Of a stretch of 61,504 nucleotides of DNA, positions 2,157 to 51,992 are shown piece by piece. This stretch comes from Pyrinomonadaceae bacterium (GTDB taxonomy: Bacteria; Acidobacteriota; Blastocatellia; Pyrinomonadales; Pyrinomonadaceae). Numbering within the stretch: the first letter of the stretch is position 1; each line of letters starts with the position of its first letter. The stretch is from positions 1 through 61,504 of the forward strand of contig DATNFX010000313.1 of assembly GCA_035606195.1 (NCBI GenBank). The letters run 5' to 3'. A program made the translations under genes and the position numbers. Below the pieces are notes generated by a model, which saw nothing but the letters and a program-made list of their open reading frames with translations, was not told the origin of the DNA and did no database searches.

Positions 2157-2579
2157 AACTCGTAGAGAAAGGACCGCAAAAATATTCTCATCACCCGTCA
2201 ACCAGGGCCCCGTCTGGAGCTCTGAATTCTTGCGGTTTCTCGAGTTTTTAAGTTGACAATGTCCAGCCCTCGGATTAGAGTTCCGCGGTCTCAAATTCAG
2301 AACCTGTGAACGGTGTCCTCTCGCCGGCATTTCAGCTTCACCAAGTGGGTTTCCGCGCGAGTCGATTCAGCAGAGAGTCTCCGTTCTGACCGGAACAATT
2401 GAACAAGGATTCGAACAAAGAGCTTATCGAGGATTTCGACGGCGAACTCGGGAACGTTACCGTAACCGAAGATGAGCTGCCGCCTGAGTCCGATCCGAAT
2501 GAAATCACGATCGAGGATCTCGATGCGGCGACGACGGTAGATCCAAACATCTATTAGCGTTGCTTCCTGGACGGATGAG

Positions 2580-2987: not shown

Positions 2988-3056
2988 CGTTGGTCTAACT
3001 TGAAATCGGACCGCAATCAACTAACCGAGTCGAACCTCTGAGATAATTTTCCTCGT

Positions 3057-9281: not shown

Positions 9282-9400
9282 TTTGTCTAATTTCAGACTC
9301 AGTCGACTTCACGACAGACGAGACATCTCATCTGATGTAGAAAGTTCGTGCTCTGACTAAACGGAAGACTCCAAACCCAGAGGATTCCCCTCCCTTACCC
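9282..9400 (+). promoter_or_regulatory. conserved leader element, copy A (paralog at 46995-47112), containing TGTCT-N6-AGACT
   Basis: Shares with copy B the blocks TTTGTCT.ATTTCAGACTCAGTC, TTCACGACAGAC, GTAGAAAG and GCTCTGACTAA, plus a weaker ..GAGGA.TC...CCTCCC tail. Same order and orientation in both copies. Confidence 0.6.
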
Positions 9401-21294: not shown

Positions 21295-21299
21295 AAACT

Positions 21300-36400: not shown

Positions 36401-39400
36401 AGTCGCCAGGCGCTCGCGTTTACTCTTTTGAACCGCTGCCGCCGAACTTCGAAGCGTTGCAGACGAACGTAAAGTTCTATGGCCTCGACGTCGAGCTTTT
36501 TGAGTGTGGACTTTCGAGCCGGCGTGAGACGGCGACTTTCACTTTTTATCCCCATGCAGCGGCGATGTCGGGCAAGGGTAGCCGCGTCGATGAAGACAAG
36601 GCCGCGGCCCGCGCGAACGTGGGCAGTTGGCTTAAGACCTTTGAGCACAATTCTCAGACGCCGGGTCAGTACGATCTCGATAGTTTTGTCGAACACTACC
36701 TGATTGGCGAGTCGTATACCTGCCAGCTCCGCACCCTTTCCGAGGTCATTCGTGAAAACGAAATTGAGCGTATCGATCTGTTGAAGCTCGACGTAGAACG
36801 AAGCGAGTTTGACGTGGTTTTGGGAATTGAGGACGAGGATTGGAAGAAGATCAGACAGTTTGTGATCGAAGTCCATTCCGATGGGCTGCTGGAGCAGATC
36901 ACAGCGCTCTTGCGCACACGCGGATTCACGTTTGTAGTGGAGAAGAGTGCGATCGTGGAAACGACCAGCCAGGACATCGTTCGGGGTTACATGCTTTATG
37001 CGTGGGACCCGGAGCAGCGGGCCGCTAGCAATGGTAATGGCGCGAATCCTGCACCCGAGGTCCCCGAATTGTCGCCGGACGATTTGCGAAATTTCCTGCG
37101 GGAACATCTGCCGATCCAGATGATCCCGTCGGCGTTTGTTTTGCTGAAAGAGCTGCCGTTAATGGCCAGCGGCAAAGTTGACCGCTGCGCACTACCTGCG
37201 CCGGATGGCCCAATAATCCTGACGGACGAACACGTCGCGCCGCGAACTCCCGTTGAAGAGATCGTCGCGGGAATCTGCGCCTCGGTCCTGCGCCTCGATG
37301 ACATCAGTGTGACCGGCAACTTTTTCGATCTCGGCGGTCATTCACTCCTGGCGGCGCAGGTGATTTCTCGCGTACGTGAGACATTTCATATCGAACTGAG
37401 TCTCCGCAATCTGTTCCTGAAGCCGACGGTCGAGGGGCTTGCAGAGAACATCGAAAGATCGCTGAAGGCCGGCGAACAGGTAGCGGTCGGGACTATCGCG
37501 CGAGTTTCCCGTGCGGTCGACCTGCCACTTTCCTTCTCGCAGCAGCGGATCTGGTTCCTGGACCAGATGGCCGGCGGCACGCCTTACTACAACATTATTT
37601 CGCGCGTGCGTCTGCAGGGAGAATTGAATCTCGACGCACTGCAAAGGGCGTTCGCGGAGATCGTCCGGCGTCATGAGATTCTCCGCACGACGTTTGCAAA
37701 CTTTAGAGGTCGCCCAACGCAGATCGTCAGTCCGTGGACGCCGTCAACGTTGGAGATCGAAGAGATTGCGGGCGAAACGGACGAGGAACGAGCAGAAAAT
37801 GCTCGTTTGCTTGCACGGCAAGAGGCCATGGAGCCGTTTGATTTGAGCAGCGGCCCGCTGTTACGCGTTCGCATTCTGCGTCTTAGCGACGCAGAGCACC
37901 TCGCTATTCTCAAGCTGCACCACGTGATCTCGGACGGATGGTCCACCAGTGTGCTCGTGAATGAGCTCTCGACGCTTTACTCGGCTTTCTTGCAGGACCA
38001 ACCGTCGCCGCTGGCTGAGTTGCCGTTTCAATATAGCGATTACGCAGTTTGGCAACGCGGATGGTTGCAGGGCGAAGTGCTCGAAACGCAACTGAACTAC
38101 TGGCGCCGGCAACTCAAGGACGCTCCGGCATTGCTCGAGCTGCCCACAGACAAGCCACGCCCTGCGATTCAAACTTTCAACGGCGCTCCCGAGCACTTCG
38201 AGATTGGACCAGAGCTGGCGGCGCGACTGCGTGGACTCTCCCGGGACGAAGGCGCAACGCTCTTCATGACATTGCTGGCGGCGTTTACGACGCTGCTCTA
38301 TCGCTACTCCAATCAAAACGACATCGTAATTGGCACCGACATCGCCAACCGCACGCGCGCTGACATCGAAAACCTGATCGGTTTCTTCGCAAACATGGTG
38401 CTGTTGCGCAGCAACGTGTCTGATAATCCGACTTTTGCGGAACTGCTGGGCCGGATTCGCGAAACTGCTCTCGGCGCTTATGCGCATCAGGATCTGCCTT
38501 TCGAAAAACTGGTTGAGGAACTGCAGCCGGAACGCAGCCTGAGCCACGCGCCGTTCTTCAATGTGGTTTTCGTTCTGCAGAACACGCCGCGGAACGCGCT
38601 TGAGCTGCCCGGCCTCAAAGTCACGCCCGAACCGTTTGAGAGCAACTTCACGCGCTTCGATCTCGAGTTTCATCTCTGGGAAAGCGAAGAGCGGCTGAGC
38701 GGATTTCTCATTTCAAACACCGATCTGTTCGAACCTGACACGATACGACGGTTACTCAACCACTTCACTAATTTGCTCGAAGGAATTGTCGCTGATCCGG
38801 ATCGCCGGATTGCCAGCTTGCCCTTGCTCTCAGTGGACGAGCGCTGTCGCTTCTTGACGACTGCGAACAACACAACCGCCGATTACCCGCGAAACGGACT
38901 CATTGCGCAACACTTTGAGTCACAGTGTGCGCGAACACCGGAGGCCACAGCACTGATTTTCGGCGAACGCGAGATGACTTACCACGAACTCAATCGCCGT
39001 GCTAATCAGCTGGCGCACCATCTCAAGTCGCTTGGCGTCGGGCCGGAGATCCCGGTCGCGCTCTGCATTGAACGTTCGTTTGAAATGGTCGTCGCGCTGC
39101 TGGCGATTATCAAAGCAGGTGGTTACTACGTGCCGCTGGATCCTGAATATCCGATCGGCGGGTTGGAGTTCATATTTAACGACCTGGCGATCCCCGTCGT
39201 GGTAACGCAAGAGTCGCTGTTGGGCGTGCTGCCTGCGCACTGGTCGCACGTGTTGAGTTTGGATACCGATTGGGACGCCATCGCTCGGAAGAGTGATGAG
39301 AATCTCCGCCTTGAGGGAATAGCCGAGCACCTTGCCTATGTGATGTACACGTCAGGTTCGACGGGCCAGCCGAAAGGTGTCGCGGTCACGCACCGCGGCG

Positions 39401-42400
39401 TTTTGCGTCTCGTAAAAGAAACCAACTATGCAAGCTTCGGAAGCGACGAAGTATTTTTGCAATTGGCGCCAATCACATTCGACGCTTCAACGTTCGAAGT
39501 ATGGGGCAGTCTGCTTAACGGCGGGCGGCTTGTGATCTTTCCTCCGAAAGCGCCTGCATTGGAAGAAGTGGGCGCAGCGTTGCGACGTCATGGTGTGACA
39601 ACTTTATGGCTCACAGCCGGCCTGTTTCACCTGATGGTGGATCAACGGCCCGATGATTTGCGCGAGTTGCGTCAACTCCTTGCGGGTGGCGATATATTGT
39701 CGGCTGCGCACGTGCAAAAAGTGCTGAGAAGTTTTCCCGGTCGCTTGATAAATGGCTATGGACCAACTGAAAACACCACCTTCACGTGCTGTTATCCAAT
39801 GATGAGGGGGGAGGAGTCTCGCGACGTGGTTCCCATTGGTCGCCCGATCTCAAACACGCAAGTCTATTTGCTGAATCGAGATCTCGAGCCGGTACCTCCC
39901 GGAGTAGCAGCCGAGCTTTACACTGGCGGCGACGGCCTGGCGCGTGGCTACCATTATCGACCAGAGCTAACGGCCGAGCGTTTCATTCCGCATCCCTGCG
40001 GCAAACCCGGTGAACGGCTCTATCGCACTGGTGATCTGGCGCGTTACCTGCCGGACGGCCGGATAGAGTTTGCCGGCCGGTTGGACCATCAGGTCAAGGT
40101 ACGCGGCTTCCGCATTGAGCTGGAAGAGATCGAGGGTGTGTTGGCAGCACATCCGGCCGTGCGGCAATGTGTAGTCCTCGCGCGTGCAGATGCCGGACTT
40201 GAAAAGCAGTTGGTCGCATACGTCGTGCTCGAAGACGAGCGAGAGTTGATCGCGACCGGCATGCGAAGTTACCTCGGCCAGCACCTGCCGGATTACATGG
40301 TTCCTTCGCAGCTCGTCATACTTGATTCTTTTCCGCTAACGGCGAACGGCAAAGTCGACCGGCAGGCGCTGCCTGCGCCCGGCGAAGTGCGAGACAAGGT
40401 GAAGGAGGAGTATGTTCCGGCGCGCACTCCCGCGGAGAAGGCACTCGTCGAAATTTGGCAGGACGTGCTGGGAGTCGAGCGTGTCAGTGTTAACGACAAT
40501 TTCTTCGATCTCGGCGGAGATTCAATTCGCAGTATTCAAGTACACGCAAGGGCGGAGGAGCATGGCTATCAGGTTTCGGTGCGGGAGATCCTCCAGCTTC
40601 AGACAATTGCCGAACTGGCGCGTGTCGCTGAAAGAACTGATTCCGGTGTGGCTGAATCCTGCAAGAGCGATGCGTTCGGCCTGGTCGGCATCGATGATCG
40701 CCACAGGCTGCCTGAAAGTATCGAAGACGCGTATCCACTCTCGTTCCTTCAGCGCGGAATGTTGTATCACACGAATTTGAGTGGAGAGTTGGCGCTCTAT
40801 CATGTGATCTTCAGTTGCGTCGTTCGTGGTTCACTCGAAATCGAGGCGCTAAAGGGAGTGCTGCAACGTGTGACGGAGCAGCATCCGATTTTACGTACCT
40901 CCTTCGATCTACACAGTTACAGCGAACCGCTACAACTCGTACACGATCGCGTGACCGTGCCGTTTGAGGTGGTGGATTTAGCGTATTTGGCGGCGACCGA
41001 TCGGAAACAGGCGTTCGCCGAGTGGCAGGAAGAAGAGAAGAGGCGTGGTTTTGATTGGTCTTCACCGCCCATCATGCGTCTAAGGCTCTTTGTCCACGGC
41101 GAAACCGAGTTTCGCATCGCGCTCAGTTTTCACCATGCGATTCTCGATGGGTGGAGTTTGAGTTCGATGTTGTCAGAGCTCTTCTCGCTCTATCAGGAAC
41201 TCCGTGATAGGGAGGAGCCTGCGACTAGCTTCAGAGACTTCATTGCTCTCGAACAGCAAGCGTTGCATTCGGAGGAAAACCAGCGCTACTGGTCGGAAAA
41301 ACTATCAACTCTGCCATTCACTATGTTGCCGCCGCGGGAAGGATCCGCGCCACCTGACGCAAGCAGAAATATTTTGCAGGTGCGTTTTGATAGTGAGTTA
41401 GCCGGTGGTTTGAAATCGTTTGCGCGTCGCGCTGGAGTGCCACTCAAGTCAGTGCTGCTGGCGGCGCACTGCAAGATACTTGGGGTGCTTACCGGGCAGC
41501 CCGAGGTCACAACAGGTCTTGTCTCCAACGGTCGCCCTGAAGCGGGCGGTGGAGATCGAGCGCTCGGCCTGTTTTTGAACACGGTTCCATTCTCAACGCG
41601 GATCCAGGACAAGTCGTGGCTCGATCTGGCCCAGGCCGTCGCTGCTGAGGAGAATGAGCTTTCAGCATTTCGCCGCTATCCGCTCGCGGAACTGCAAAGA
41701 GCACGTGGCGGTGAACCGCTTTTTGAGGCGACATTCAATTACACACACTTCCACATTCTCGAAAACGTGCATGAAAGCAATGACTTCAAGGTCGTCGATG
41801 CCGAAGTGTTTAGCCAGATCAACTTTCCATTCAGCGCCGGGTTCGATCTAAACAATTCGGAACTGGTGTTGATACTCGAACACGATCTCTCGCGGATAAG
41901 CCTCCAACAGATCGACGAGATCAAGAACTACTATGCCGGGGCGCTGCACGCGATCGTCTCGAATCCAGCCGGCAAGGACAATTCCTGGGCGCTCGTTGAA
42001 GCCGAGCGTCGCCGGCTGCTGGTCCAGTGGAACGAGACAAGCGCTGATTACCCTCGCGAAGTTTGTTTGTATGAATTGATCGAGGCGCAGGTAGAGCGTA
42101 CGCCCGCTGCGGTGGCCCTCATTTCAGGTGACGAGCAAACGAGCTATCGCGAATTGAATGAACGCGCGAACCAGTTCGCGCACTATCTCGAGTCATTGGG
42201 CGCAGGGCCGGACGTCCTCGTTGGCGTCATGCTGAATCGTTCAGTCGATATGATCGTGGCGCTGCTCGCGGTGTTAAAGGCGGGTGCAGCATATGTACCG
42301 CTCGATCCGGCCTACCCGCGCGAACGTTTGCGCTTCATGATCGAAGACGCAGGAGTGTCGATTTTGCTGACCGAACAGGCCCTGGTTGACAGGTTGCCCG

Positions 42401-45400
42401 AGAATGGGCCAAAGCGAGTACTTATCGATACGGACAAGACAGCGATTCAACCACACAGCCGAATGAGCCCGTTAAGTGGCGTGAGCGCCGGCAACCTCGT
42501 CTACATAATCTATACCTCCGGGACAACGGGGCGACCGAAAGGTGTAATGTTGGACCACCGCGAAGTCGTGAATTGTGTGCTGTGGATGCAAAGCACCTAC
42601 GCATTAACGCCGCAAGACTCCATGCTGTGTAAGACAACACTCAACTTCGATCCGTCGATTTGGGAGATCTTTTGGCCGTTGCTGACCGGCGGTCGGGTAG
42701 TACTGACCCGGTCAGAGGACCAGCACGACAGCGCTGCCCTTTTGCAAATAATTATCGATCGTCACGTGACCATCGCGTATTTTGTGCCTGCGATGCTGAG
42801 GCTCTTTCTGTCTGAGGACGGCGTCGCACAAGCGAGGTCTCTGCGAAAAGTGATCTGCGGCGGGGAGTCTTTGCCTCACGATCTGGTGAAGTTGTTTTAT
42901 CAACGCCTGCCGCAGGCGACACTGCATCACTCGTACGGACCGACGGAAACGGCCATTGCGTCTGTAGAGACGATCTGCGCGCCGGATTCCCCGTACGGAG
43001 TGACGCCGATAGGCCGTCCGCTGGCAAACACCGAGTTATATGTGTTGGATCAGCAGATGCAACCCGTTCCGCGCGGCGTGATTGGAGAACTGTTTATTGG
43101 TGGAGAGGGATTAGGTCGCGGTTATCTCAAGCGACCGGACCTGACGGCTGAAAGGTTTGTGCCGGATCCTTTCGGACCCAGACCGCATGGCCGCCTGTAT
43201 CGCACCGGCGACATGGTCCGCTACCTGCCATGCGGGAACCTCGAGTTTCACGGGCGCCGTGACGAGCAGGTGAAATTGCGCGGCCTTCGCATCGAGCTGG
43301 GAGAGATTCAAGCCGCTATCACAGTCGAGCAGGACGTGGAGACGGCGCTTGTTACGTTGCGTCACGATCATTCGGGAGGGAGCAGTCTGATCGCCTATGT
43401 TGTTCCGAAACCCGGCTCTGAGTTAGTCGTTGCCGAACTCCGGCAAAGAGTTGCGCAACGTCTGCCCGCCGCGATGGTCCCCACGGCATTCATGATTATC
43501 GAGACGCTTCCGCTGTTGCCGAACGGCAAGGTGGATCGCGCGGCGCTACCGAATCCGGAGTTTGAAGTTGCGAATGACTACCTCGTTCCGCGCGACGCCG
43601 TAGAAGAATTGATCGCGGGTATTTGGGCTGAGCTTCTCGATCTCGAGCGCGTCGGCGTACACGACGACTTTTTCACGATAGGTGGACACTCTTTAATCGC
43701 CACGCAAGTGATGGCGAGACTATTTGACGTGTTCCACGTCGACCTCGGTCTGCGCAGTTTGTTTGAGACACCGACGGTCGCCGCGCTCGCACAAAGAATT
43801 AACTGCGCTATGCGCGAAGGAAGGTTGAGCCAGCCGTTCGAAATTGGACCGTGGCCGCGGCCGCAGCCGCTGCCTCTGTCGTTTGCGCAGCAGCGACTCT
43901 GGTTCCTGGAACAATTGGGATCGCCCGGGGCCGCTTATCACATTCCAGTCATCTTCCGCATTCGCGGCCGGCTCGACGTCGAGGTGCTTGCACGAGTTGT
44001 GAACGAGATCATGCAGCGTCACGAGTCGCTGCGCACAAGTTTCCACGTCGTTGACGGTGCCCCTGTGCAGGTGATCAACCGTTATCAAGAAGTGTCGCTA
44101 CCACTTATCGACTTGAGCGACCTGCCAGAAGAGCAACGAGAAGCTGACGCAGTGTTGCTTTCGAGCCAGCAGTCACAACTGAGGTTTGACTTGTCTGCTG
44201 GTCCGCTTATGCGCGTTTGTCTGCTGCGGTTGAATCAACAGGAGCATGTGCTGCAACTCACGCTGCATCATTTGATCGCTGACGGTTGGTCAGTGGCCGT
44301 ACTGGCCCGCGAGACTCGCGCGCTGTACGAAGCAGTCTGTCAGGATCAGCCGTCGCCTCTGCCTGCGCTCGAGATACAGTACGCCGACTTCGCTTTGTGG
44401 CAACGCGAGTGGTTACAGGGCGATCTGCTTGCTGGACAGATCGACTATTGGCGCCGGCAACTGGCCGGCGCGCCCCCGGCGCTCGAACTCCCCACGGACC
44501 AGACGCGTCCGGCACTGCAGAGCTTCCGAGGCTCGCAAATCGGGTTCACACTGGCGCGCGCATTAACACAAGAGTTGCACAGCTTGAGCCGGCGTGAGGG
44601 CACGACAATCTTTATGACGTTGCTAGCCGCGTACGCTGTGCTGCTGTCGCGTTATGCAAATCAGGCGGACGTCGTGGTGGGCACTCCAATCGCAAATCGC
44701 AGGCAAACTGAACTCGAAGGCCTCATCGGATTCTTCGCCAACACACTTGCCCTTCGCGTTAAGGTACATCCGGAGCTCACGTTCCGCGCGTTGCTGCGCA
44801 ACGTTCGTGAAGTGACTCTCGGGGCTTATGCTAATCAGGACGTGCCGTTCGAAAGACTCGTTGAAGAGTTACGCCCGGCTCGCGAACTGAATCGAAACCC
44901 GTTCTTCCAGGTGACGTTTGGGGTGCAGAACATTCCGCACGCGCAACTAAATCTACCGGGGCTCGAAATCGGGGTGCAGGAGTTCGTTACGGGTGCGACA
45001 AGATTTGATCTCGAATGTTTTCTACGCGAGGAAGACGGCGAGTTACGCGGCAATTTTACCTACAGCACGGATCTGTTCGAACAACAAACGATCGAGAGCA
45101 TGCTGCGTCACTTCGAGCGACTGCTGGAACTCGTGGTCGCTGATCCAAAACAGCAGCTTTGCGAGATTCAGCTATTGACGCCTGAGGAAGAGCAACAATT
45201 GATTCGGCGGCGTGATGCTCAGTTGAAGCGCGGCGGTAATCAGGTTGAGGCCGCAGACAAGGGACCGCCACAAGCACCCGCATCGACCGCGGCGACAGAG
45301 TTAGTCGCTGAGATCTGGGCTGAAGTGCTGGGCCTCGAACGCGTTGGTTTGCACCAGGACTTCTTCGAGCTCGGAGGCCATTCGCTGCTCGCAACACGAG

Positions 45401-46902
45401 TCGTTTCGCGTCTGCGCGAAGCGTACAAACTAGAGGTGCCGCTCCGCCGGCTGTTCGAATTGCCAACCGTGTTTGAGCTCGCGACACACATCGACAGTCT
45501 GCTTCGTGACGGCAAGGATCTGGCCCAACCACCTATTCGGCGTCAGGCACAAGATGGTCCGCGGCCACTCTCGTTTGCGCAGCAGCGTCTGTGGTTCTGG
45601 GAGCAACTGGAACCAAACACTCCAACTTATAACCTCACGTCAGCGTTTCGACTCGAAGGAGATCTCGATCGCGCCGTCCTCGAGCGGACGCTGAACGAGA
45701 TCGTGCGCCGGCACGAGATTCTGCGGACCTCGTTTATGGCAGTTGACGGTGAACCGGTACAGGTCGTGGCTCCGCGCAAGACTCTTCGTGTGAACCTCTT
45801 AGACATCGGTTGGTTGCCGGCGGAAGAGCGCGAAGCTGAGGCGCGGCGTTTGACAGCAGAGGAAGCGTCGCGCCCGTTTGCCTTAAATAAAGCTCCGCTG
45901 CTGCGTGTGAAGCTGCTGCGCCTGAGTCCGCAGGAACACGTCGCACTGGTCGTGATGCACCACATCATTTCCGACGGCTGGTCGATGGGAGTTCTTATCG
46001 ACGAGGTAACGGCCTTGTACGAAGCTTTTCGTTCAAATCAGCCATCACCGTTGCCGGATTTGCCAGTGCAGTATGCCGACTTCGCTGAGTGGCAACTCGA
46101 GCTGTTACGCACGGAGAGCGAAGTCCTCGAGTCGCAGCTCAACTATTGGGCCGAAAAACTCCGCGAGGCGCCAAACCTGGAACTGCCTACCGATCGGCCA
46201 CGACCGCGTGTCTACAATCCGCGTGGGGCGATCATTCCTTTCAAGCTGTCAGCAGAATTGTTGCAGGAGCTGAAGACGTTAAACCGTCGAGAACACGTGA
46301 CTCTGTTCATGACTCTGCTCGCCGCGTTCAACATCCTGCTCCGCTCACGCGCTCGACAGGACGACATCGTTGTTGGCGCGGATATCGCTAATCGAACGCG
46401 TGTGGAAACGGAAGGCCTGATCGGGTTCTTCGTGAACATGTTGGTGCTGCGAACAGATCTCAGCGGCGACCCGACGTTCGGCGAGTTGCTGCAAAGAGTA
46501 CGCGAAGTCACGCTTGGCGCTTACGCGCACCAGGATGTGCCGTTCGCCAAACTCGTAAGTCAATTGCAAGTAAAGCGCGACTTGAGTCGCAACCCGCTTT
46601 TCCAGGTTGTGTTTGTGTTGCAAAACGCTTCTATGAAAACGCTGGAGCTGCCTGGGTTGAAGCTGAGTCCGTTCGAGTTTGGAATGACGAACGCGCCCTT
46701 CGACATTGTCCTATCGCTCAACGAGACTCCGGACGGATTGCTTGGCTCCATTACTTACAACACAGAACTTTTCGACGAGCAGACAGCGCGGCGACTGTTA
46801 GACGATTACGAGAATATGCTCGAACGCCTGGTAAAAGATCCAGCTCAACGGATCTCAAGTCTCGAGCTTTTTCGCCCGCGTGAGTTGGGCCAACATGCGT
46901 GA
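33421..46902 (+). CDS. NRPS: C-A[FkbM MT insert]-T-C-A-T-C-A-T-C-T-C
   Basis: C motifs YHGLVDG (33847), HHVISDG (37918), HHAILDG (41131), HHLIADG (44266) and HHIISDG (45958). A cores near 35270, 39346 and 42511. T serines at 37342, 40522 (GGDS), 43690 and 45382. FkbM-like insert at ~36151-37090. No A domain between the C at 44266 and the T at 45382. Confidence 0.95.
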   Translation: MKMKNVEDIYPLSPMQEGILFHTRHDPAFAMYFEIITGTMHGEVDLSAFARAWQSVVDRHAVLRTAFVWEGLDEPIQVVRRRAKLTVTNHDWRSLTIDEQSNALAELFAAERALGFDLSKAPLMRVALIQTGAGSYRFVWTYYHGLVDGWSGSLVFNDVLLFYEALTNGVEINLPAAPSFRSYIDWVRSHDFAEAREYWRRTLRGFKAATPIDFVSPHETSSSDRTTSYREREFNLNAETTARLLRLSRQERLTLNTICQGAWAILLHRYSGQRDVVFGVTVSGRPPELEHIETMIGMLINTLPARIEVTPDAKLVPWLKDIQARQWEMRQYEYSPLVEVQGLSDVPRTNPLFDSIVSFENHPIDHSLLKRNDRAQVRDVVHYHTATGYPINIIIEPGAELSVKLLYDFGRIDDARVDRILGHLGHLLTDIAADPDRIISKFAVLTPHEQQELLVEWNMTAAEYRRDVCLHELFEEQVERAPERPAVVFRDRQLSFSELNAQANQLARYLRRLGVGPEVRVAVCMERSVEMVLGMIATLKAGGVYVPLDPSQPTQRLKFLFGDANVRVVLTQKALTELLPACDSEIVCLDECLTQPEYTTNLPVSTTAESLAYVIYTSGSTGTPKGVMVQHRSAVNLVGALQQEIYQDQNDALRVGLNAQVIFDASIKQLLQLLSGHTLVVVPEEIRANPDELLGHVAEQQLDVLDCTPSQLQLLLTSKSWRERRPKLMLIGGESLRSHLWDRLAAEQGTEFYNVYGPTECTVDAAIGHIRTAGEPPNIGRPINNTRIYLLDDRQQPAPLGVRGEICVAGECLARGYLNGPESTAEKFIPEPFSGAAGARMYRTGDVGRYLEDGRLQFVGRADHQVKVRGVRIELGEIETALRQHHGVRDAVVQAHGESSEDRRLVAYVVPERTRSLPLVAKSNGDDLLAGKQVSKLPNGMVIAGHGSLQASGVYREIFEDRIYMKHGIRLDENACVFDVGANIGLFTLFVKQQSPGARVYSFEPLPPNFEALQTNVKFYGLDVELFECGLSSRRETATFTFYPHAAAMSGKGSRVDEDKAAARANVGSWLKTFEHNSQTPGQYDLDSFVEHYLIGESYTCQLRTLSEVIRENEIERIDLLKLDVERSEFDVVLGIEDEDWKKIRQFVIEVHSDGLLEQITALLRTRGFTFVVEKSAIVETTSQDIVRGYMLYAWDPEQRAASNGNGANPAPEVPELSPDDLRNFLREHLPIQMIPSAFVLLKELPLMASGKVDRCALPAPDGPIILTDEHVAPRTPVEEIVAGICASVLRLDDISVTGNFFDLGGHSLLAAQVISRVRETFHIELSLRNLFLKPTVEGLAENIERSLKAGEQVAVGTIARVSRAVDLPLSFSQQRIWFLDQMAGGTPYYNIISRVRLQGELNLDALQRAFAEIVRRHEILRTTFANFRGRPTQIVSPWTPSTLEIEEIAGETDEERAENARLLARQEAMEPFDLSSGPLLRVRILRLSDAEHLAILKLHHVISDGWSTSVLVNELSTLYSAFLQDQPSPLAELPFQYSDYAVWQRGWLQGEVLETQLNYWRRQLKDAPALLELPTDKPRPAIQTFNGAPEHFEIGPELAARLRGLSRDEGATLFMTLLAAFTTLLYRYSNQNDIVIGTDIANRTRADIENLIGFFANMVLLRSNVSDNPTFAELLGRIRETALGAYAHQDLPFEKLVEELQPERSLSHAPFFNVVFVLQNTPRNALELPGLKVTPEPFESNFTRFDLEFHLWESEERLSGFLISNTDLFEPDTIRRLLNHFTNLLEGIVADPDRRIASLPLLSVDERCRFLTTANNTTADYPRNGLIAQHFESQCARTPEATALIFGEREMTYHELNRRANQLAHHLKSLGVGPEIPVALCIERSFEMVVALLAIIKAGGYYVPLDPEYPIGGLEFIFNDLAIPVVVTQESLLGVLPAHWSHVLSLDTDWDAIARKSDENLRLEGIAEHLAYVMYTSGSTGQPKGVAVTHRGVLRLVKETNYASFGSDEVFLQLAPITFDASTFEVWGSLLNGGRLVIFPPKAPALEEVGAALRRHGVTTLWLTAGLFHLMVDQRPDDLRELRQLLAGGDILSAAHVQKVLRSFPGRLINGYGPTENTTFTCCYPMMRGEESRDVVPIGRPISNTQVYLLNRDLEPVPPGVAAELYTGGDGLARGYHYRPELTAERFIPHPCGKPGERLYRTGDLARYLPDGRIEFAGRLDHQVKVRGFRIELEEIEGVLAAHPAVRQCVVLARADAGLEKQLVAYVVLEDERELIATGMRSYLGQHLPDYMVPSQLVILDSFPLTANGKVDRQALPAPGEVRDKVKEEYVPARTPAEKALVEIWQDVLGVERVSVNDNFFDLGGDSIRSIQVHARAEEHGYQVSVREILQLQTIAELARVAERTDSGVAESCKSDAFGLVGIDDRHRLPESIEDAYPLSFLQRGMLYHTNLSGELALYHVIFSCVVRGSLEIEALKGVLQRVTEQHPILRTSFDLHSYSEPLQLVHDRVTVPFEVVDLAYLAATDRKQAFAEWQEEEKRRGFDWSSPPIMRLRLFVHGETEFRIALSFHHAILDGWSLSSMLSELFSLYQELRDREEPATSFRDFIALEQQALHSEENQRYWSEKLSTLPFTMLPPREGSAPPDASRNILQVRFDSELAGGLKSFARRAGVPLKSVLLAAHCKILGVLTGQPEVTTGLVSNGRPEAGGGDRALGLFLNTVPFSTRIQDKSWLDLAQAVAAEENELSAFRRYPLAELQRARGGEPLFEATFNYTHFHILENVHESNDFKVVDAEVFSQINFPFSAGFDLNNSELVLILEHDLSRISLQQIDEIKNYYAGALHAIVSNPAGKDNSWALVEAERRRLLVQWNETSADYPREVCLYELIEAQVERTPAAVALISGDEQTSYRELNERANQFAHYLESLGAGPDVLVGVMLNRSVDMIVALLAVLKAGAAYVPLDPAYPRERLRFMIEDAGVSILLTEQALVDRLPENGPKRVLIDTDKTAIQPHSRMSPLSGVSAGNLVYIIYTSGTTGRPKGVMLDHREVVNCVLWMQSTYALTPQDSMLCKTTLNFDPSIWEIFWPLLTGGRVVLTRSEDQHDSAALLQIIIDRHVTIAYFVPAMLRLFLSEDGVAQARSLRKVICGGESLPHDLVKLFYQRLPQATLHHSYGPTETAIASVETICAPDSPYGVTPIGRPLANTELYVLDQQMQPVPRGVIGELFIGGEGLGRGYLKRPDLTAERFVPDPFGPRPHGRLYRTGDMVRYLPCGNLEFHGRRDEQVKLRGLRIELGEIQAAITVEQDVETALVTLRHDHSGGSSLIAYVVPKPGSELVVAELRQRVAQRLPAAMVPTAFMIIETLPLLPNGKVDRAALPNPEFEVANDYLVPRDAVEELIAGIWAELLDLERVGVHDDFFTIGGHSLIATQVMARLFDVFHVDLGLRSLFETPTVAALAQRINCAMREGRLSQPFEIGPWPRPQPLPLSFAQQRLWFLEQLGSPGAAYHIPVIFRIRGRLDVEVLARVVNEIMQRHESLRTSFHVVDGAPVQVINRYQEVSLPLIDLSDLPEEQREADAVLLSSQQSQLRFDLSAGPLMRVCLLRLNQQEHVLQLTLHHLIADGWSVAVLARETRALYEAVCQDQPSPLPALEIQYADFALWQREWLQGDLLAGQIDYWRRQLAGAPPALELPTDQTRPALQSFRGSQIGFTLARALTQELHSLSRREGTTIFMTLLAAYAVLLSRYANQADVVVGTPIANRRQTELEGLIGFFANTLALRVKVHPELTFRALLRNVREVTLGAYANQDVPFERLVEELRPARELNRNPFFQVTFGVQNIPHAQLNLPGLEIGVQEFVTGATRFDLECFLREEDGELRGNFTYSTDLFEQQTIESMLRHFERLLELVVADPKQQLCEIQLLTPEEEQQLIRRRDAQLKRGGNQVEAADKGPPQAPASTAATELVAEIWAEVLGLERVGLHQDFFELGGHSLLATRVVSRLREAYKLEVPLRRLFELPTVFELATHIDSLLRDGKDLAQPPIRRQAQDGPRPLSFAQQRLWFWEQLEPNTPTYNLTSAFRLEGDLDRAVLERTLNEIVRRHEILRTSFMAVDGEPVQVVAPRKTLRVNLLDIGWLPAEEREAEARRLTAEEASRPFALNKAPLLRVKLLRLSPQEHVALVVMHHIISDGWSMGVLIDEVTALYEAFRSNQPSPLPDLPVQYADFAEWQLELLRTESEVLESQLNYWAEKLREAPNLELPTDRPRPRVYNPRGAIIPFKLSAELLQELKTLNRREHVTLFMTLLAAFNILLRSRARQDDIVVGADIANRTRVETEGLIGFFVNMLVLRTDLSGDPTFGELLQRVREVTLGAYAHQDVPFAKLVSQLQVKRDLSRNPLFQVVFVLQNASMKTLELPGLKLSPFEFGMTNAPFDIVLSLNETPDGLLGSITYNTELFDEQTARRLLDDYENMLERLVKDPAQRISSLELFRPRELGQHA
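36151..37090 (+). other. second FkbM-family methyltransferase domain embedded in an A domain
   Basis: VFDVGANIGLFTLFVKQQSPGARVYSFEP...LLKLDVERSEFDVVLG lies between RRLVAYVV and LPIQMIPSAFVLLKELPLMASGKVDR. Collinear with the 25051-25980 insert. Confidence 0.8.
45172..45300 (+). other. C-to-T junction where an A domain is missing (~43 codons)
   Basis: LLTPEEEQQLI (the normal C-A linker) runs straight into RRRDAQLKRGGNQVEAADKGPPQAPASTAATELVAEIWAEVLG...FFELGGHSLL (the normal pre-T segment). Confidence 0.85.
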
Positions 46903-46994
46903 ACAGCTATCGGTTGAAATAGGACCTCATAAGGACCAATAAAGCATAAAAGATCCGAAATTATTTTAGAAAAACCACAATGATGGAGAATTGG

Positions 46995-47112
46995 TTTGTC
47001 TGATTTCAGACTCAGTCCGATTCACGACAGACAGCAACGTCTCAGGTTGGGTAGAAAGGGGCGGCTCTGACTAATAGATGTTCTATCCGAGGACTCGCTC
47101 CGACCTCCCCAG
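46995..47112 (+). promoter_or_regulatory. conserved leader element, copy B (paralog of 9282-9400), containing TGTCT-N6-AGACT
   Basis: Same conserved blocks as copy A, in the same order and orientation. Sits in the 433-nt gap between the NRPS stop (46902) and the MbtH-like gene. Confidence 0.6.
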
Positions 47113-47270
47113 TAGAGAGAAAGCCCTGAGCAACTACGTAGTACCTATGTTGTTGTGTGGACACTTCATGCTTACGAGCTCTCGGTAATTAGAACAAGCC
47201 TGCGGACGACTTGTCCGAGTAGGCATCCACACATTTTGTCTTCTCATTTAAGATGCCACTTGGCTTCGGA

Positions 47271-47289
47271 TGCGGTAGCTGTGCCGGCC
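47271..47289 (+). promoter_or_regulatory. ops-like box TGCGGTAGCTGTGCCGGCC (copy 2)
   Basis: 17/19 identical to 10291-10309 and contains GCGGTAGC. Lies 65 nt upstream of ATG 47336. Confidence 0.5.
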
Positions 47290-47335
47290 ACTTGCAATTG
47301 CAGATTTCGCACAAAATAAAATCGGAGGGAAAAAG

Positions 47336-47569
47336 ATGGACCGAGATGACGCAGAAGATCAAACAATCTATAAAGTTGTGCTCAACCACGAAGAGCAGTA
47401 CTCGATTTGGCCTGCCGATCGCGAGAATGCACTCGGTTGGTTTGACGCCGGTAAAACCGGTATGAAGGCCGAATGTCTGGAGTACATCAAAGAGGTCTGG
47501 ACTGACATGAGACCTCTGAGCCTGCGCAAGCATATGGAGGAAGCTGCCGCAAAGCAGTCGAGCGCGTAG
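47336..47569 (+). CDS. mbtH: MbtH-like protein
   Basis: 77 aa. GGAGGG RBS at 47324-47329. Hallmark [24 protein letters not shown]...AECLEYI with the conserved Trp residues. Confidence 0.9.
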
Positions 47570-47655
47570 CCCGGCATGAACTCCTGAGCTCGATCGTTTA
47601 CGCTGCGCCTACCCGCACCCACCTGAGTTGTTTAAGTTCCACAACGGTAAAGACA

Positions 47656-48657
47656 ATGAAAAAGTTTGCCAATGTTGCGGCTTCGCCTGCTCCTGTGAGC
47701 GCTAATAGTTTCAAAGACGAAACGAAGATCCGGCATCTGCTTTCGATCCACGACTGCACGCCGGGTCAGTTACGAAAGCTCGTCGAAACGGCAGTCGCTT
47801 TCGCGGCCGGAGAGGAGATTGGTCACTCTTCTCTGAGCGGGAGCACGGTTGGCATCTATTTTCGTCGTGCCTCTACGCGCACGCGGACGTCATTCTCAGT
47901 GGCCGCGCATCGCCTCGGGGCGAAAACAATTCACTATGGACCATCCGATCTACAACTCACAACCGGCGAAACTGTTGAGGACACCACCAGGGTGTTGTCC
48001 GGTTTTCTTAAAGCACTCGTTATTCGTACCAACGACTCAGTTTCTGAAATGGAGCTCTTTGCAACGCAGCACAGGATGCCCGTTATCAATGCCATGAGTG
48101 AGAACGAGCATCCCACGCAGGCGATTGCGGATCTGGCGGCGATGCGAGAGACGTTGGGCCGGCTCGAAGACGTTCACGTGCTTTATCTGGGCGAGGGAAA
48201 CAACACGGCAGCGTCATTAGCGTTTGGCATTGCGATGTTTGCAGGAATGAGACTTACGCTGGTGACTCCTGCCGGTTATGGATTGGCTGACGCTCAACTT
48301 GAGACCGCAAAAATAATGGCACGCAAGACCGGAGCTGAGATCGAACAGCACCACCGGATCGATCGGTTACCGCGTAACGTTGACGTCGTCTACACCACGA
48401 GATGGCAGACGATGGGAGTGCCTAAGGCGGACCCCGATTGGAAGGCGAAGTTCAGACCTTACAGCGTGACCCTGGAGCTCATGGCGAACGTCTCAAAACC
48501 TTCAGGCACGATCTTTCTTCACGACTTGCCGGCCGTGCGCGGAGACGAAGTAACGAACGAAGTCCTTGATGGACCGCAAAGCAAGGCTTTCCGGCAAGCT
48601 GAATACAAACTGTTTGGAGCGATGGCAACGCTCTGCTGGTGTGTTGGTGACCTCTGA
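47656..48657 (+). CDS. carbamoyltransferase of the ATC/OTC superfamily with non-canonical second-substrate motifs
   Basis: Carbamoyl-phosphate motifs STRTR and HPTQ are present. The OTC-like GEGNNTAASL is present. However, DxxxSMG is replaced by TRWQTMG and HCLP by HDLP. Confidence 0.8.
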   Translation: MKKFANVAASPAPVSANSFKDETKIRHLLSIHDCTPGQLRKLVETAVAFAAGEEIGHSSLSGSTVGIYFRRASTRTRTSFSVAAHRLGAKTIHYGPSDLQLTTGETVEDTTRVLSGFLKALVIRTNDSVSEMELFATQHRMPVINAMSENEHPTQAIADLAAMRETLGRLEDVHVLYLGEGNNTAASLAFGIAMFAGMRLTLVTPAGYGLADAQLETAKIMARKTGAEIEQHHRIDRLPRNVDVVYTTRWQTMGVPKADPDWKAKFRPYSVTLELMANVSKPSGTIFLHDLPAVRGDEVTNEVLDGPQSKAFRQAEYKLFGAMATLCWCVGDL

Positions 48658-48736
48658 ACCGGATCTTCTCTGAGGCTTGCACCAGAGAATAAGCACCTTC
48701 ATGCAATCGAACCCAAAGCTAAAGGAGCCGCTCTCG

Positions 48737-49558
48737 ATGTCAATCACTGACGAGCAGTTGCGCGAGTATGGAGACCGCGGTCTTCTGTTTCTGCCCGGTT
48801 ATTTCTCCGCTGCCGAAGTTGACATTATGAAAGCGGAGCTTCCTCACCTCTTCGCCGCCACCTCATTGGGAAAAGTCATGGAAGACGGAGGCCGTGACGT
48901 GCGTTCCGTATATGGAGCACAGTTCACTAGTAAGACTTTCCAACGGCTAACAAGGCATGCGCGAATCGCAGAGCCGATCATGAAAATTCTCGACAGCCAG
49001 GTGTACGTCTACCAGTTTAAGATCAACGCCAAGGCAGCGTTCGGTGGTGATATTTGGGAGTGGCACCAGGATTACATCTACTGGCAGAAAGAGGATGGCA
49101 TGCCGTCAGCTCGTGCCTCCAACGTCATAATTTTTCTCGATGACGTGAATGAATTCAACGGACCTTTGTTCTTCATCCCCGGCTCACACAAGGAAGGCGT
49201 GATTGAAACGCCGGTCTGTGACCCCGGGCCAGAAGTCAGCAACGAGAACAACCCGGGCTGGCTCTCTTCCCGGCTCAAGTACGCTCTTGATCGGGGGACG
49301 GTCGCGCAACGAATCGCCACCTACGGCATTATCGCACCCAAGGGTCCCGCGGGTTCAATGCTCTTTACACATCCGAATATCATTCATTGCTCGCCTAGTA
49401 ACATGTCTCCTTTTGATCGCGTCGTCGCGATCATCACCTACAACAGCGTCGAGAATATTCCCACTCAAACCAATCAGCGACCGGAGTTCCTGTCCAGTCG
49501 CGACTTGACACCCGTTGTGCCGTTGCCTGAAGACAGTTGGGCCAAAGCGGCGTACTGA
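48737..49558 (+). CDS. PhyH/EctD-like Fe(II)/2-oxoglutarate hydroxylase
   Basis: AAGGAG at 48722-48727 lies 9 nt before ATG 48737; the track start 48677 is possible. IWEWHQDYIYWQKEDGMP resembles the EctD signature F-x-WHSDFETWH-x-EDG-M/L-P. HxD (WHQD) and a distal His (NIIHCSP) are present. Confidence 0.8.
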   Translation: MSITDEQLREYGDRGLLFLPGYFSAAEVDIMKAELPHLFAATSLGKVMEDGGRDVRSVYGAQFTSKTFQRLTRHARIAEPIMKILDSQVYVYQFKINAKAAFGGDIWEWHQDYIYWQKEDGMPSARASNVIIFLDDVNEFNGPLFFIPGSHKEGVIETPVCDPGPEVSNENNPGWLSSRLKYALDRGTVAQRIATYGIIAPKGPAGSMLFTHPNIIHCSPSNMSPFDRVVAIITYNSVENIPTQTNQRPEFLSSRDLTPVVPLPEDSWAKAAY

Positions 49559-49576
49559 GCACGATCAGATAACGAG

Positions 49577-51982
49577 ATGATGGAACAATCGGCTGCAGCT
49601 ACCGCTGAGGCTTGCGAACCTGTTTCGGCGGACTCAGCGAACACACCGGCGCATTTGATCAGGCTTGACGAAACGTGGGCGCTGTGGCGTTGGGTCGGTC
49701 TCAGAGGTGCGGGGTTTCCGATTGCTCAGCTCTCAAAACTAGCCGCGCCGGAGACAGCCAAGGCGGCGGACGCAATTCTGGAAGCAGAAAGCGCAGGCAA
49801 CAACGGACGCGAACAACCAGCACCGCTCTGGTCCGATTTCAAGGCAAACTTCAAAGCGGAAGCTTTGCTAATTTCGCAGGCAATCAAGGATGCGGCGACG
49901 TCGAAAACTTTTCGTGAGGCAATCATTTGGCAGAACCGAAACGCATTACACGGCAGCATTGAAGCTTTGCTCCGCATGCCGGAGCAGCGCGACGTCGGAG
50001 TGAGAGACCGGCGGCGGCGCGAAGAGGCGGTCGCCAGTTACGTCCAGCGTTATTGTGCGAAGAATGACACCATTGGCTTTTTCGGACCCGTCGGCTGGGC
50101 CGAGCTTGCTTCAACGGGAGATTTGATTCAAGCGCAACCCGGTGAGACGCTGCTGGCGCAACGTGATGTGTACTTCGAAGTCTGGTGTATTGACAAGTTG
50201 GCCCAGGTGCTCGCGGCAAATGGTACGTCTCGCGAGTGGATTGCGCCACGCCGCGCTTCTTACATCGATCTCGCGGGAACTCGCCTGTATTTACCGTCGC
50301 GTGGAGCGATCAATCTGCCGCTCAACGAGGCTGCTGCACTAAGAGCATGTGACGGTTGCCGAACTGCTAAAGAGATCGCGAAAGTGCTCGTCGCCAATCC
50401 TCTGATTGGAATCAAAAGTGCGGCAGAAGCATACGCCCTACTTGAGAAGCTTGAGCAACGGGCATGGATTGTCTGGAAGTTCGAAGTTCCGATGGAACTA
50501 TTTCCAGAACGGACTCTGCGTCGAGGCCTTGAGCAAATTGCCGACGACGCAAAGCGGGAACTTTCATTAGCCGCACTCACCGAGCTTGAGTTGGCCCGTG
50601 ATTGCGTTGCGAGAGCGGCTGGCGACGATCAAGAGTTAGACGCGGCGATTGGAAATCTGGAAGAAACGTTTACGCGATTGACCGGCTCGGCCTCGACGCG
50701 ATCGCCAGGAGAGATGTATGCGGCGAGGACGCTGGTTTACGAGGATTGCCGCCGTGATCTAGATCTCGAGCTCGGCCCACAAGTCACGGCTTCTTTGGCG
50801 CCGTCTCTTTGCCTGCTTCTGACGAGCGCAAGGTGGTTTAGTTACCAGATCGCCAACATCGCGAGAGGTTGGTTTAATAAGTTGTACGCCGAAATCTCCG
50901 CACGCACGCGATCGCGGACGATTGACTTCACAACTTTCTGGTATCAAATCTCGCCACTAGTGTTGACCGATCAACGCGCACCGCTCAACGTGGTACTGCT
51001 CGAAGTCCAGAAGAAGTGGGACCAAATACTCTCTTTGCCGGCTGGAACAAGCCGCGTCGAATATACGAGCGAAGAGCTTCGCGAAGCAGTCGCTACGGCG
51101 TTCGACTCACCACGCGCCGGATGGGAAGCGGCGATCTATCACAGTCCGGACATCATGATCGCAGCGGAAAGCATCGACGCAATTCGGCGCGGTGATTATC
51201 AGTTCGTTTTGGGCGAGATACACGCAACGGTCAACACTATAGGCACCCATGTTTTTGTCGAGCATCATCCGCAGCCCCGAGAGTTCTTGCGCAATTTCGT
51301 TTTGGATCGGGCTGAACCGAAGGCAGTGCCGCTCGTACCTAAGGTGGTTTGGCCGTCGCAGTCTTCACGTCTGATGCCGGTTTATTCTCCGCATGACTAT
51401 ATTATTGAGTTTGTGCCCGAACCTGCCGACGTGCCTCACTCGCAGATAGTCCAGTTCGGTTCGCTGGTCGTTGAGGATCAGGGCAAGGGGCCGATGGTCC
51501 GCACCCGCGATGGAAGGTTGCAGTTCGATCCGTTGGACCTACTCACTGTTACACCAACTCTGAGCGTCGGAAACGATTTCAAGCTGCTTGCCCGGGTGAA
51601 ACACCGGCCGAGAATTACGATCGATCGGCTGGTGGTCGAGCGCGAGACATGGTGTTTCCAAGCTGCGGAAATCGAGTTCGCCGAGGAAAAAGACGAAGCC
51701 TCGCGATTTCTGGCAGCGCGACGTTGGGCCCGTGAGCAAGGCATGCCGCGATTTGTTTTTATAAAATCGCCGATTGAAGTCAAACCGGTATTCGTGGATT
51801 TTGACAGTCCTGTCTACCTCAACATCCTGAGTAAAATGGTGCGCAAAGGCCTCAGGAATGATTGTTCGGACTTCGTCTTCACGGAGATGCTTCCGACTCC
51901 GGGGCAATGTTGGTTGCCTGACGCAAATGGTCAAAAGTATGCGAGCGAGTTGAGGTTTATTGCGGTGGATCTAGGTTATTAG
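49577..51982 (+). CDS. small LanB-like protein (lantibiotic-dehydratase N-terminal/glutamylation-type domain only)
   Basis: 801 aa. LIRLDETWALWRWVGLRGAGFP, FREAIIWQN and VQRYCAKNDTIGFFGPVGWAEL resemble conserved N-terminal blocks of LanB / split LanB / PEARL proteins. No SpaB_C-type elimination domain recognised. Called from memory of the family, not from a search. Confidence 0.6.
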   Translation: MMEQSAAATAEACEPVSADSANTPAHLIRLDETWALWRWVGLRGAGFPIAQLSKLAAPETAKAADAILEAESAGNNGREQPAPLWSDFKANFKAEALLISQAIKDAATSKTFREAIIWQNRNALHGSIEALLRMPEQRDVGVRDRRRREEAVASYVQRYCAKNDTIGFFGPVGWAELASTGDLIQAQPGETLLAQRDVYFEVWCIDKLAQVLAANGTSREWIAPRRASYIDLAGTRLYLPSRGAINLPLNEAAALRACDGCRTAKEIAKVLVANPLIGIKSAAEAYALLEKLEQRAWIVWKFEVPMELFPERTLRRGLEQIADDAKRELSLAALTELELARDCVARAAGDDQELDAAIGNLEETFTRLTGSASTRSPGEMYAARTLVYEDCRRDLDLELGPQVTASLAPSLCLLLTSARWFSYQIANIARGWFNKLYAEISARTRSRTIDFTTFWYQISPLVLTDQRAPLNVVLLEVQKKWDQILSLPAGTSRVEYTSEELREAVATAFDSPRAGWEAAIYHSPDIMIAAESIDAIRRGDYQFVLGEIHATVNTIGTHVFVEHHPQPREFLRNFVLDRAEPKAVPLVPKVVWPSQSSRLMPVYSPHDYIIEFVPEPADVPHSQIVQFGSLVVEDQGKGPMVRTRDGRLQFDPLDLLTVTPTLSVGNDFKLLARVKHRPRITIDRLVVERETWCFQAAEIEFAEEKDEASRFLAARRWAREQGMPRFVFIKSPIEVKPVFVDFDSPVYLNILSKMVRKGLRNDCSDFVFTEMLPTPGQCWLPDANGQKYASELRFIAVDLGY

Positions 51983-51992
51983 GAGAGCAGAC

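Follow-up and report, generated by a model that had tools for sequence, protein, structure and literature searches.

Modules of nonribosomal peptide synthetases (NRPSs) that lack an adenylation (A) domain break the rule of one module per residue. In the kutzneride synthetase KtzH, a module with a truncated A domain (A*) is reportedly loaded in trans by KtzN. The WS9326A synthetase has an A-less module of condensation (C) and peptidyl carrier (PCP, here T) domains that relies on an A domain encoded elsewhere, trans-acting A domains have been proposed for viomycin and syringomycin, and a single A domain of the yersiniabactin system (HMWP2) incorporates three cysteines (PMC7539972). The fungal ferrichrome-type synthetases Sib1, SidC and NPS2 combine degenerate A domains with terminal T-C repeats; it has been proposed that an adjacent A domain makes up for their A-domain loss by charging the T-C units iteratively, and the lost and retained domains are predicted to charge the same residue (PMC2644324). 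Here we analyze open reading frame (ORF) 33421-46902, on the + strand of a 61,504-nucleotide stretch of a Pyrinomonadaceae (Acidobacteriota) genome (contig DATNFX010000313.1; the whole stretch is hereafter the window), in which the last elongation module, having lost its A domain, precedes a terminal C domain.

The last elongation module lacks an A domain

The protein encoded by ORF 33421-46902 (4493 aa) has the domain order C-A(MT)-T-C-A-T-C-A-T-C-T-C, where MT is a methyltransferase, with limits defined by Pfam and by phmmer queried with the window's own domains (Table 1). Over the whole ORF, Pfam recognizes five Condensation, three AMP-binding and four PP-binding stretches. The missing A domain would lie between C4 and T4. 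Over the segment 44800-45600, the Pfam Condensation match stops at residue 134 and the PP-binding match spans residues 168-231, with no AMP-binding match, and neither Pfam nor phmmer finds AMP-binding between residues 3927 and 3961 of the protein. With the A3 domain of the window as query, phmmer also detects no A-like stretch in the ORF past residue 3385. Because at most 33 residues separate C4 from T4, this result of the hidden Markov model searches means that no A fold lies between them. The absence of the domain, proposed in an earlier sequence-only reading of the window, is thus borne out, and the loss of the A domain from the last elongation module is confirmed.

The domains on either side of the gap are intact. 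C4 retains the HHxxxDG active site (HHLIADG), and T4 follows it directly with its GGxS site in place (FFELGGHSLL). T4 is also the top-scoring PP-binding stretch of the ORF, and the carrier looks competent, as had been supposed. The protein then ends in an intact C5 (HHIISDG) that has no acceptor in cis. These three motifs and the linker LLTPEEEQQL all stand at the coordinates first reported for them. The linker between C4 and T4 had been described as low-complexity sequence, but it is not featureless: 19 of its codons (RRDAQLKRGGNQVEAADKG) match the A8 core motif of a dead A domain in the relative L164 (GRRDGQLKLRGHGVEAGKAE).

An assembly artefact was considered as the cause of the C4-T4 junction and rejected. 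Between 77 and 100% of the words sampled from a 1-kb stretch at the junction are found in 22 soil or rhizosphere metagenome runs, and contigs from four independent runs extend across the junction without showing any other joint (those of X1 and X8 reach 45594, that of X11 reaches 45388, and a 9.4-kb contig of X2 spans 44400-46000).

The A-less C-T arrangement is rare yet already known. As background we used 159 unrelated NRPS loci (L005-L163), obtained by scanning genome and metagenome contigs with T4-C5 and at most 55% identical to it; the scans returned generic C domains only and no orthologs. An A domain comes next after 462 of the 474 C domains that have a following domain. Two true A-less C-T junctions occur among these 474, one of them (L110) likewise within a C-T-C order, and a third case has an FkbH-like insert. 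A protein search with the T4 region alone matched mostly short fragments, and its top long-contig match, P0122 (L167), was discarded as an unrelated NRPS joined to a polyketide synthase (PKS), with a thioesterase (TE). A-less C-T units also occur in other phyla: P0002 (Thermoanaerobaculia), P0004, P0028, P0070 (Streptomyces) and L110. P0002 has near-identical tandem C-T repeats (A-T-C-T-C-T-C) that resemble duplication more than A loss, and P0070 begins C-T-C-A-T.

Relatives retain successive stages of A-domain loss

The relatives of the module, all on partial metagenomic contigs, range from an intact A domain to short remnants. P0001 (Pyrinomonadaceae), whose C4 and C5 are 68-72% identical to those of the window, carries at this position, between the same C and T domains, a complete A domain with every core motif present and a Pro-like specificity code (DVQFVGHVVK). 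L164, a 62-kb metagenome contig, has the gene order of the window (NRPS, MbtH, OTCase-like, PhyH, LanB-like, FAAL-NRPS), and it is 80% identical to the window in C4 and C5. Its A core of ~430 residues is dead. The C-terminal subdomain is gone (no A9-A10) and the A10 lysine with it; the A3 core motif TSGSTGxPKG reads TSDTSGMPNG, with the Lys replaced; FD has become CE, GPTE has become GPTA and YRTGD has become YRTGE; and A8 is degenerate. The code of this remnant, EVQFISHVA-, is still Pro-like.

The edges of the deletion can be placed by alignment with these two sequences. The C-A linker LLTPEEEQQL of the window corresponds to LLTPAEDHQQL in P0001 and LLMSDEEQQL in L164, both of which run on into VEWN and the A domain, whereas the window has lost ~410 codons in frame between EEQQL and MQLL. 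The site shows a microhomology encoding Gln-Leu, CA(A/G)(C/T)T(G/C). Since the remaining window linker aligns with the A8 remnant of L164, the two share the truncation of the subdomain. Other lineages retain other pieces: P0006 keeps PNPFS and a few more residues with the same downstream boundary as the window and L164, P0046 keeps patches (part of the A3 core motif, and A5 to A8) with a different downstream boundary, and P0003 keeps the A10 motif only (FPITPDGKIDRRRLP). The T4-C5 unit thus derives from a complete module by A-domain loss, the A domain being intact in P0001, dead in L164 and reduced to remnants elsewhere.

A neighbour-joining tree of T4 and C5 has the topology ((((P0006,(window,L164)),P0001),P0046),P0003), with bootstrap values of 94.5% for the window with L164, 100% for this pair plus P0006, and 99.5% for all but P0003. 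P0001, with its intact A domain, is nested within A-less lineages and the breakpoints differ, so at least two inactivations are implied; we consider that the A domain was inactivated independently at least two times, probably three. The loss had two steps: the C-terminal subdomain was already gone in the ancestor shared by the window, L164 and P0006, and the core disappeared later, by independent deletions in the window and in P0006. The earlier proposal of an in-frame loss of an ancestral A domain is supported, with the refinement that the loss was stepwise.

C4, T4 and C5 are under purifying selection

We estimated the ratio of nonsynonymous to synonymous substitution rates (dN/dS) by the Nei-Gojobori method (NG86). 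Between the window and L164, whose divergence falls entirely after the death of the A domain, dN/dS is 0.12 for C4, 0.22-0.24 for T4 and 0.14 for C5, alongside 0.14 for C3, 0.17 for A3 and 0.09 for T3; with a dS of 0.6-1.0 in this pair, the absolute values are rough where dS is near or above 1, and the comparison between domains is robust. Over all pairs, C4 and C5 range from 0.08 to 0.24, all but one value being at most 0.17, and T4 from 0.10 to 0.24; in pairs with the window, C4 ranges from 0.08 to 0.17, T4 from 0.11 to 0.22 and C5 from 0.08 to 0.15. The A-domain remnants have higher values, 0.17-0.29. Between the window and P0001, dN is 0.19 for C4 and 0.23 for C5, so C4, which is 72% identical to its P0001 ortholog, shows no acceleration. 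HHLIADG is kept in all four sequences that cover the C4 site, and the GGHSL serine and HHI(I/V)SDG in all six lineages.

Given the low dN/dS and the conserved motifs, we conclude from these comparisons that C4, T4 and C5 are functional, under purifying selection as strong as on active domains, and that the module is probably still used. An inert, decaying C4-T4 leftover, skipped during synthesis and persisting because a frameshift would cut off C5, is accordingly highly unlikely. Its A domain is clearly decaying, and in-frame deletions in the linker are tolerated (just 33% identity between the window and L164), as such a leftover would predict. However, no in-frame deletion is found inside C4 or T4, even though the adjacent A domain was deleted at least four times, and the selection on both domains resembles that on active ones. 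Selection shows that the C4-T4 unit is used, without telling a loaded T4 from a T4 that acts as a shuttle.

Loading of T4

A T4 that is loaded in trans or serves as a shuttle, the two options offered by the sequence-only reading, remain the right ones. Specificity codes were extracted by alignment to GrsA, and the GrsA control gave the correct code (Table 1). A3 is the A domain nearest to T4, and its code (DPWYIGSIAK) is identical in three A-less lineages (the window, L164 and P0003). Literature searches for this code and for DVQFVGHVVK gave no match. A stand-alone A gene, whose presence had been suggested as worth checking, was not found in the window, nor was an A-T gene; the neighbouring A domain acting twice is viable.

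We tentatively favour the view that C4-T4 is a still-working elongation module, whose A domain was inactivated and then deleted, whose carrier is charged by a foreign A domain, and whose chain is off-loaded by C5. The ancestral module had its own A domain with a Pro-like code, as in P0001 and L164; the C-terminal subdomain was lost first, and the core was removed later, in the window by the ~410-codon deletion. For loading, the identity of the loader and the chemistry of release we infer the following scheme. T4 would be aminoacylated by another domain, most likely the adjacent A3, which would then serve both T3 and T4 so that its residue is added twice; an A domain encoded outside the window is a less likely loader. 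C4 would then form the usual peptide bond, and C5 would off-load the chain through attack of an internal or free nucleophile. As C4 shows no acceleration, it presumably performs the same reaction as before the A domain was lost, and the simplest reading of its conservation is that it would still condense the chain onto aminoacyl-S-T4 as in P0001.

Several observations weigh against this view. The case for a loaded T4 comes from selection, and the dN/dS values behind it are rough in absolute terms. No A domain of the window has a Pro-like code. The lost A domain was Pro-like and A3 is not, so double use of A3 would change the product, unlike in the ferrichrome case. Finally, C5 may not always be a release domain: in P0003 (locus L002) a tail of 35 residues extends it, and the next gene encodes C-A(Val)-T-C.

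In the main alternative, T4 might never be aminoacylated and instead take the finished chain from T3 on its free thiol, with C4 as a scaffold or transthiolase and C5 releasing or cyclizing the chain from T4; the product would then be one residue shorter than that of P0001. We regard such a relay as possible but unlikely. Repeated, independent loss of the A domain is easiest if the product forms without any loader, and the window offers no A domain of compatible (Pro-like) specificity. Selection has maintained C-T-C as a block, the background case L110 has the same order, and release by the fungal GliP needs an A-less C-T couplet, according to a passage of PMC11942691 that cites the work. On the other hand, C4 is a canonical LCL domain, close in sequence to its P0001 ortholog, whose T4 partner is loaded, and without acceleration after A loss, and C5 lacks the fungal CT signature. 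To our knowledge, bacterial LCL domains are not known to catalyze transthiolation, which counts against the relay.

The terminal C domain and release

Fungal CT terminal domains have a divergent active site, SHxxxD, and form a clade apart from elongation C domains. C5 does not resemble them. It keeps HHIISDG, shares 45-50% identity with the cluster's internal LCL domains, and has as its best solved relatives the elongation C domains of Txo2, Txo1 and TycC. The ureido-type (Curea) signature EHHxxHDG is also absent from C4 (LHHLIADG), from C5 (MHHIISDG) and from every other C domain in the window. Subtyping, suggested earlier as a way to reveal a CT-like or other special C domain, thus returned no CT-like or ureido signature and instead a canonical LCL type.

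C5 is the only release candidate, because the cluster to which it belongs encodes no TE domain, reductase (R) domain or free hydrolase. The C4-T4-C5 tract might even be a dedicated bacterial off-loading unit, a counterpart of the fungal terminal C-T couplets, which we consider rather doubtful; if it were, the repeated A losses in this acidobacterial NRPS family would trace how an elongation module turned into a release module.

A different role for C5 would be that of an elongation domain acting in trans on a carrier of another polypeptide. The same cluster seems to provide an example of a terminal C domain working in this way. ORF 10356-20213 ends in an orphan LCL-type C (HHIVADG), and the next protein, ORF 22384-26457, opens with a C domain that has lost its active site (QPALCADAES replacing HHxxxDG). 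The pair looks like a split module, with the upstream C acting in trans and the dead C providing a docking scaffold. The L002 arrangement also fits, the first C domain of its next gene being 52% identical to C1 of ORF 33421, as does the similarity of C5 to elongation C domains. However, the protein ends ~10-15 residues past C5 in five of the six lineages (the window, L164, P0001, P0006 and P0046), leaving no docking tail, and P0001 and P0006 have no following NRPS gene. Moreover, each carrier in the cluster already has a donor-side C domain, and no other release function is encoded. Action of C5 in trans is therefore rather unlikely.

The neighbouring cluster and other suppliers of T4

The region is a hybrid NRPS/PKS on the + strand, and its best protein matches are in Pyrinomonadaceae (Acidobacteriota) metagenome-assembled genomes. 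Downstream of ORF 33421-46902 lies an OTCase-like, PhyH, LanB-like and M28 peptidase set that is conserved ahead of a second lipo-initiation NRPS (Table 1). A repeat search and alignment revealed a border element of ~85 nt, with copies 89% identical and a palindrome GTCTGA-TT-TCAGAC (GTCTAA in copy 1), which flanks a 37.7-kb block running from the NusG paralog through ORF 33421-46902. In relatives the element occurs once per aligned part (L165 ~890-975, L166 ~730-815, L164 ~7360-7450), and no Rfam family was found in the window, the element included. In L165 and L166 the MbtH, OTCase-like, PhyH and LanB-like genes come immediately after an orthologous Crp-like gene, and in L166 M28 follows, with no copy of this NRPS cluster between Crp and MbtH; later genes are cut off or unannotated. 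The element on both sides and this Crp-MbtH adjacency mark the 37.7-kb block as a separate unit that was inserted between the regulator and a second cluster; the first cluster seems to have entered the promoter region of the second. The element may serve the Crp-like regulator or the RfaH/LoaP-like antiterminator as an operator or leader.

These boundaries bear on two further suppliers once put forward for T4, the FAAL-ACP-C-A(Ala)-T protein (54687) and the LanB-like enzyme (49577), which would use aminoacyl-tRNA. Both genes lie nearby in the window and in L164. The LanB-like protein has just the N-terminal PF04738, like PEARL-like enzymes, and the one characterized member, encoded in an NRPS cluster, acts in nonribosomal peptide synthesis, where it is proposed to extend an unactivated carboxylate with ATP and aminoacyl-tRNA via carboxylate phosphorylation (PMC11212132). 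Both suppliers are nevertheless unlikely. They belong to the separate downstream cluster, as the duplicated border element and the organization of L165 and L166 indicate, and the FAAL protein is the initiation module of the second line, since its own NRPS gene follows at ~60070. LanB-like genes and A-less modules are also found apart: L165 and L166 have LanB without this NRPS between Crp and MbtH, and P0006, with its A-less C-T-C end, has no LanB downstream, the genes downstream of P0006 and of P0001 (C-A-T-C end) being unrelated. For the LanB-like enzyme, the proposed carboxylate chemistry differs from acylation of a thiol, making it an unlikely supplier. Loading of T4 by either protein thus deserves hardly any credence.

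No PEARL carrier peptide was found in 46902-47656, where the only credible ORF is the MbtH-like gene. The OTCase/PhyH/LanB/M28 set may act on a free carboxylate, extending it in the manner of SnaE. The PhyH protein was rejected as a SyrB2-type halogenase acting on a carrier, as it has the His-x-Asp motif; its likeness to ectoine hydroxylase falls below the curated cut-off.

Other features of the window were noted. The C-A-T modules 22384-26457 and 33421-37200 are paralogous, with Glu codes and an FkbM-type methyltransferase inside the A domain, and together with the adjacent TauD pair they resemble kutzneride tailoring, with its beta-hydroxy-Glu and its interrupted A domain that carries out O-methylation. 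In the PKS, a luciferase-like monooxygenase domain lies C-terminal of the ACP, and Pfam places KR ahead of DH, which is unusual. T2 (40400-42000 region) has a GGDSI motif (LGGDSI), typical of carriers before epimerizing domains; C3 (HHAILDG) and C1 have the DCL-like N-terminal motif YPLS(P/F)(M/L)Q, there is no separate E domain, and the Val residue may be epimerized by C3. GC skew in a 2-kb composition profile reaches 0.21 in the bin 58001-60000, which falls within the second FAAL-NRPS gene, vs at most 0.07 elsewhere.

Table 1. Features of the window, with domain limits and predicted A-domain specificities
Feature	Position in window	Residues	Strand	Evidence or remarks
Crp-like regulator	8526-9260		+	
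Border element, copy 1	9282..9319 (extended 9282-9365)		+	palindrome GTCTAA-TT-TCAGAC; after Crp-like, before RfaH/LoaP-like gene
RfaH/LoaP-like NusG paralog	9590-10114		+	
FAAL-ACP-C-A-T-C-A-T-C	ORF 10356-20213		+	
A1 of ORF 10356				code DVWHISLVDK, predicted Ser
A2 of ORF 10356				code DLFNNALTYK, predicted Ala
Two tandem TauD-type oxygenases	20257-22325 (starts 20257 and 21300)		+	
C-A(FkbM-type MT)-T	ORF 22384-26457		+	code of A DAKDLGLVDK, predicted Glu
PKS: KS, AT, KR, DH, ACP, luciferase-like monooxygenase domain	26454-33242		+	
C1 of ORF 33421		7-459	+	Pfam/phmmer
A1 of ORF 33421		458-943 and 1165-1266	+	two parts, MT inserted between; code DAKDLGVVDK, predicted Glu
T1		1272-1355	+	Pfam/phmmer
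C2		1358-1816	+	Pfam/phmmer
A2 of ORF 33421		1816-2324	+	Pfam/phmmer; code DAFWLGGTFK, predicted Val
T2		2331-2409	+	Pfam/phmmer
C3		2431-2851	+	Pfam/phmmer
A3, adenylation domain of preceding module	42031..43575	2871-3385	+	phmmer; code DPWYIGSIAK, no substrate prediction
T3, carrier of preceding module, FFTIGGHSLI	43585..43830	3389-3470	+	phmmer
C4, LCL-type condensation, HHLIADG at 44266-44286	43831..45171	3471 to ~3927	+	Pfam Condensation 3484-3927, phmmer
Retained C-A linker LLTPEEEQQL, left edge of deletion	45172..45201		+	aligned with P0001 and L164
A8 core motif remnant RRDAQLKRGGNQVEAADKG, 19 codons, sole A-domain leftover	45208..45264		+	aligned with L164 GRRDGQLKLRGHGVEAGKAE and P0001 GRRDGQLKIRGYRVEIGEIE
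T4, carrier without own A, FFELGGHSLL, Ser3988 at 45382-45384	45271..45525	3951-4035	+	Pfam PP-binding 3961-4024
C5, terminal condensation, HHIISDG at 45958-45978	45532..46899	4038-4492	+	~10 further residues, then stop codon 46900-46902
Border element, copy 2	46995..47032 (extended 46985-47075)		+	after NRPS stop, before MbtH-like gene
MbtH-like gene	47336-47569		+	Pfam annotation of orthologs
OTCase-like	within 47656-54338		+	257 bits vs cut-off 281
PhyH, ectoine-hydroxylase-like	within 47656-54338		+	His-x-Asp motif WHQDY
LanB-like, 801 aa	49577-51982		+	only N-terminal PF04738 (PEARL-like)
M28 peptidase, 781 aa	within 47656-54338		+	L164 has no M28 gene
Second FAAL-ACP-C-A-T protein	54687-60023		+	code of A DLFNNALTYK, predicted Ala
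Further NRPS gene, running off window	starts ~60070		+	

Significance and comparison with known systems

The comparative series is the most useful new result, and the A-less feature itself is confirmed as real and selected. Running from intact through dead and remnant to absent, the series is an unusually clear natural record of in-frame A-domain loss with C-T-C kept. Because the module is A-less, product prediction fails at the last step of this lipopeptide-polyketide cluster from an uncultured acidobacterium. The natural breakpoints, at QQL in the C-A linker and at the A8 hinge, tolerate excision of the domain, which is useful for engineering, and the family is a compact system in which to test if a downstream carrier can be taken over by the A domain next to it, and if chain release is the work of a bacterial terminal C domain.

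Among known systems, the ferrichrome synthetases share with this family the repeated and independent loss of A domains, an intermediate with a degenerate A domain, the retention of C and T, and a C-T-C end, as well as the compensation proposed, in which one neighbouring A domain serves several T domains. The present protein differs from them in being bacterial, in having a single A-less unit and in ending with an ordinary LCL domain. The same specificity of lost and retained A domains, predicted for those synthetases, is also not seen here, as the codes of the lost domain (DVQFVGHVVK in P0001, EVQFISHVA- in L164) differ from that of A3.

The kutzneride cluster, to which the module had been likened, likewise combines TauD-type hydroxylases with a methyltransferase embedded in an A domain. 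The comparison is apt for L164, where a truncated, dead A domain remains between C and T, but the window has lost even that, keeping only the 19-residue A8 remnant, and has no stand-alone KtzN-like A gene. As in the WS9326A, viomycin, syringomycin and yersiniabactin systems, a bacterial C-T didomain would depend on an A domain located elsewhere. In the WS9326A case, however, the genes for trans-acting A domains lie downstream, whereas none is visible here, and the A-less module stands at the end of the line, with a terminal C domain after it in place of a further module or a TE.

Two other systems are similar in part. GliP also has an A-less terminal C-T pair, needed, in the passage of PMC11942691 that cites it, for diketopiperazine release and not for residue addition; it is fungal, though, and ends in C-T rather than C-T-C, and nothing in the present cluster points to a diketopiperazine. 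The gene 49577-51982 resembles SnaE-type PEARL-like enzymes in having only PF04738 and in that no precursor peptide is seen, but it lies in the adjacent cluster, no C domain with EHHxxHDG is present in the window, and the SnaE-type chemistry takes place on a free carboxylate (PMC11212132). The A-less module is thus set apart from known cases by three features: the specificity of the lost A domain is unlike that of its neighbour, the unit stands last and is followed by a terminal LCL-type C domain, and its lineage is Acidobacteriota.

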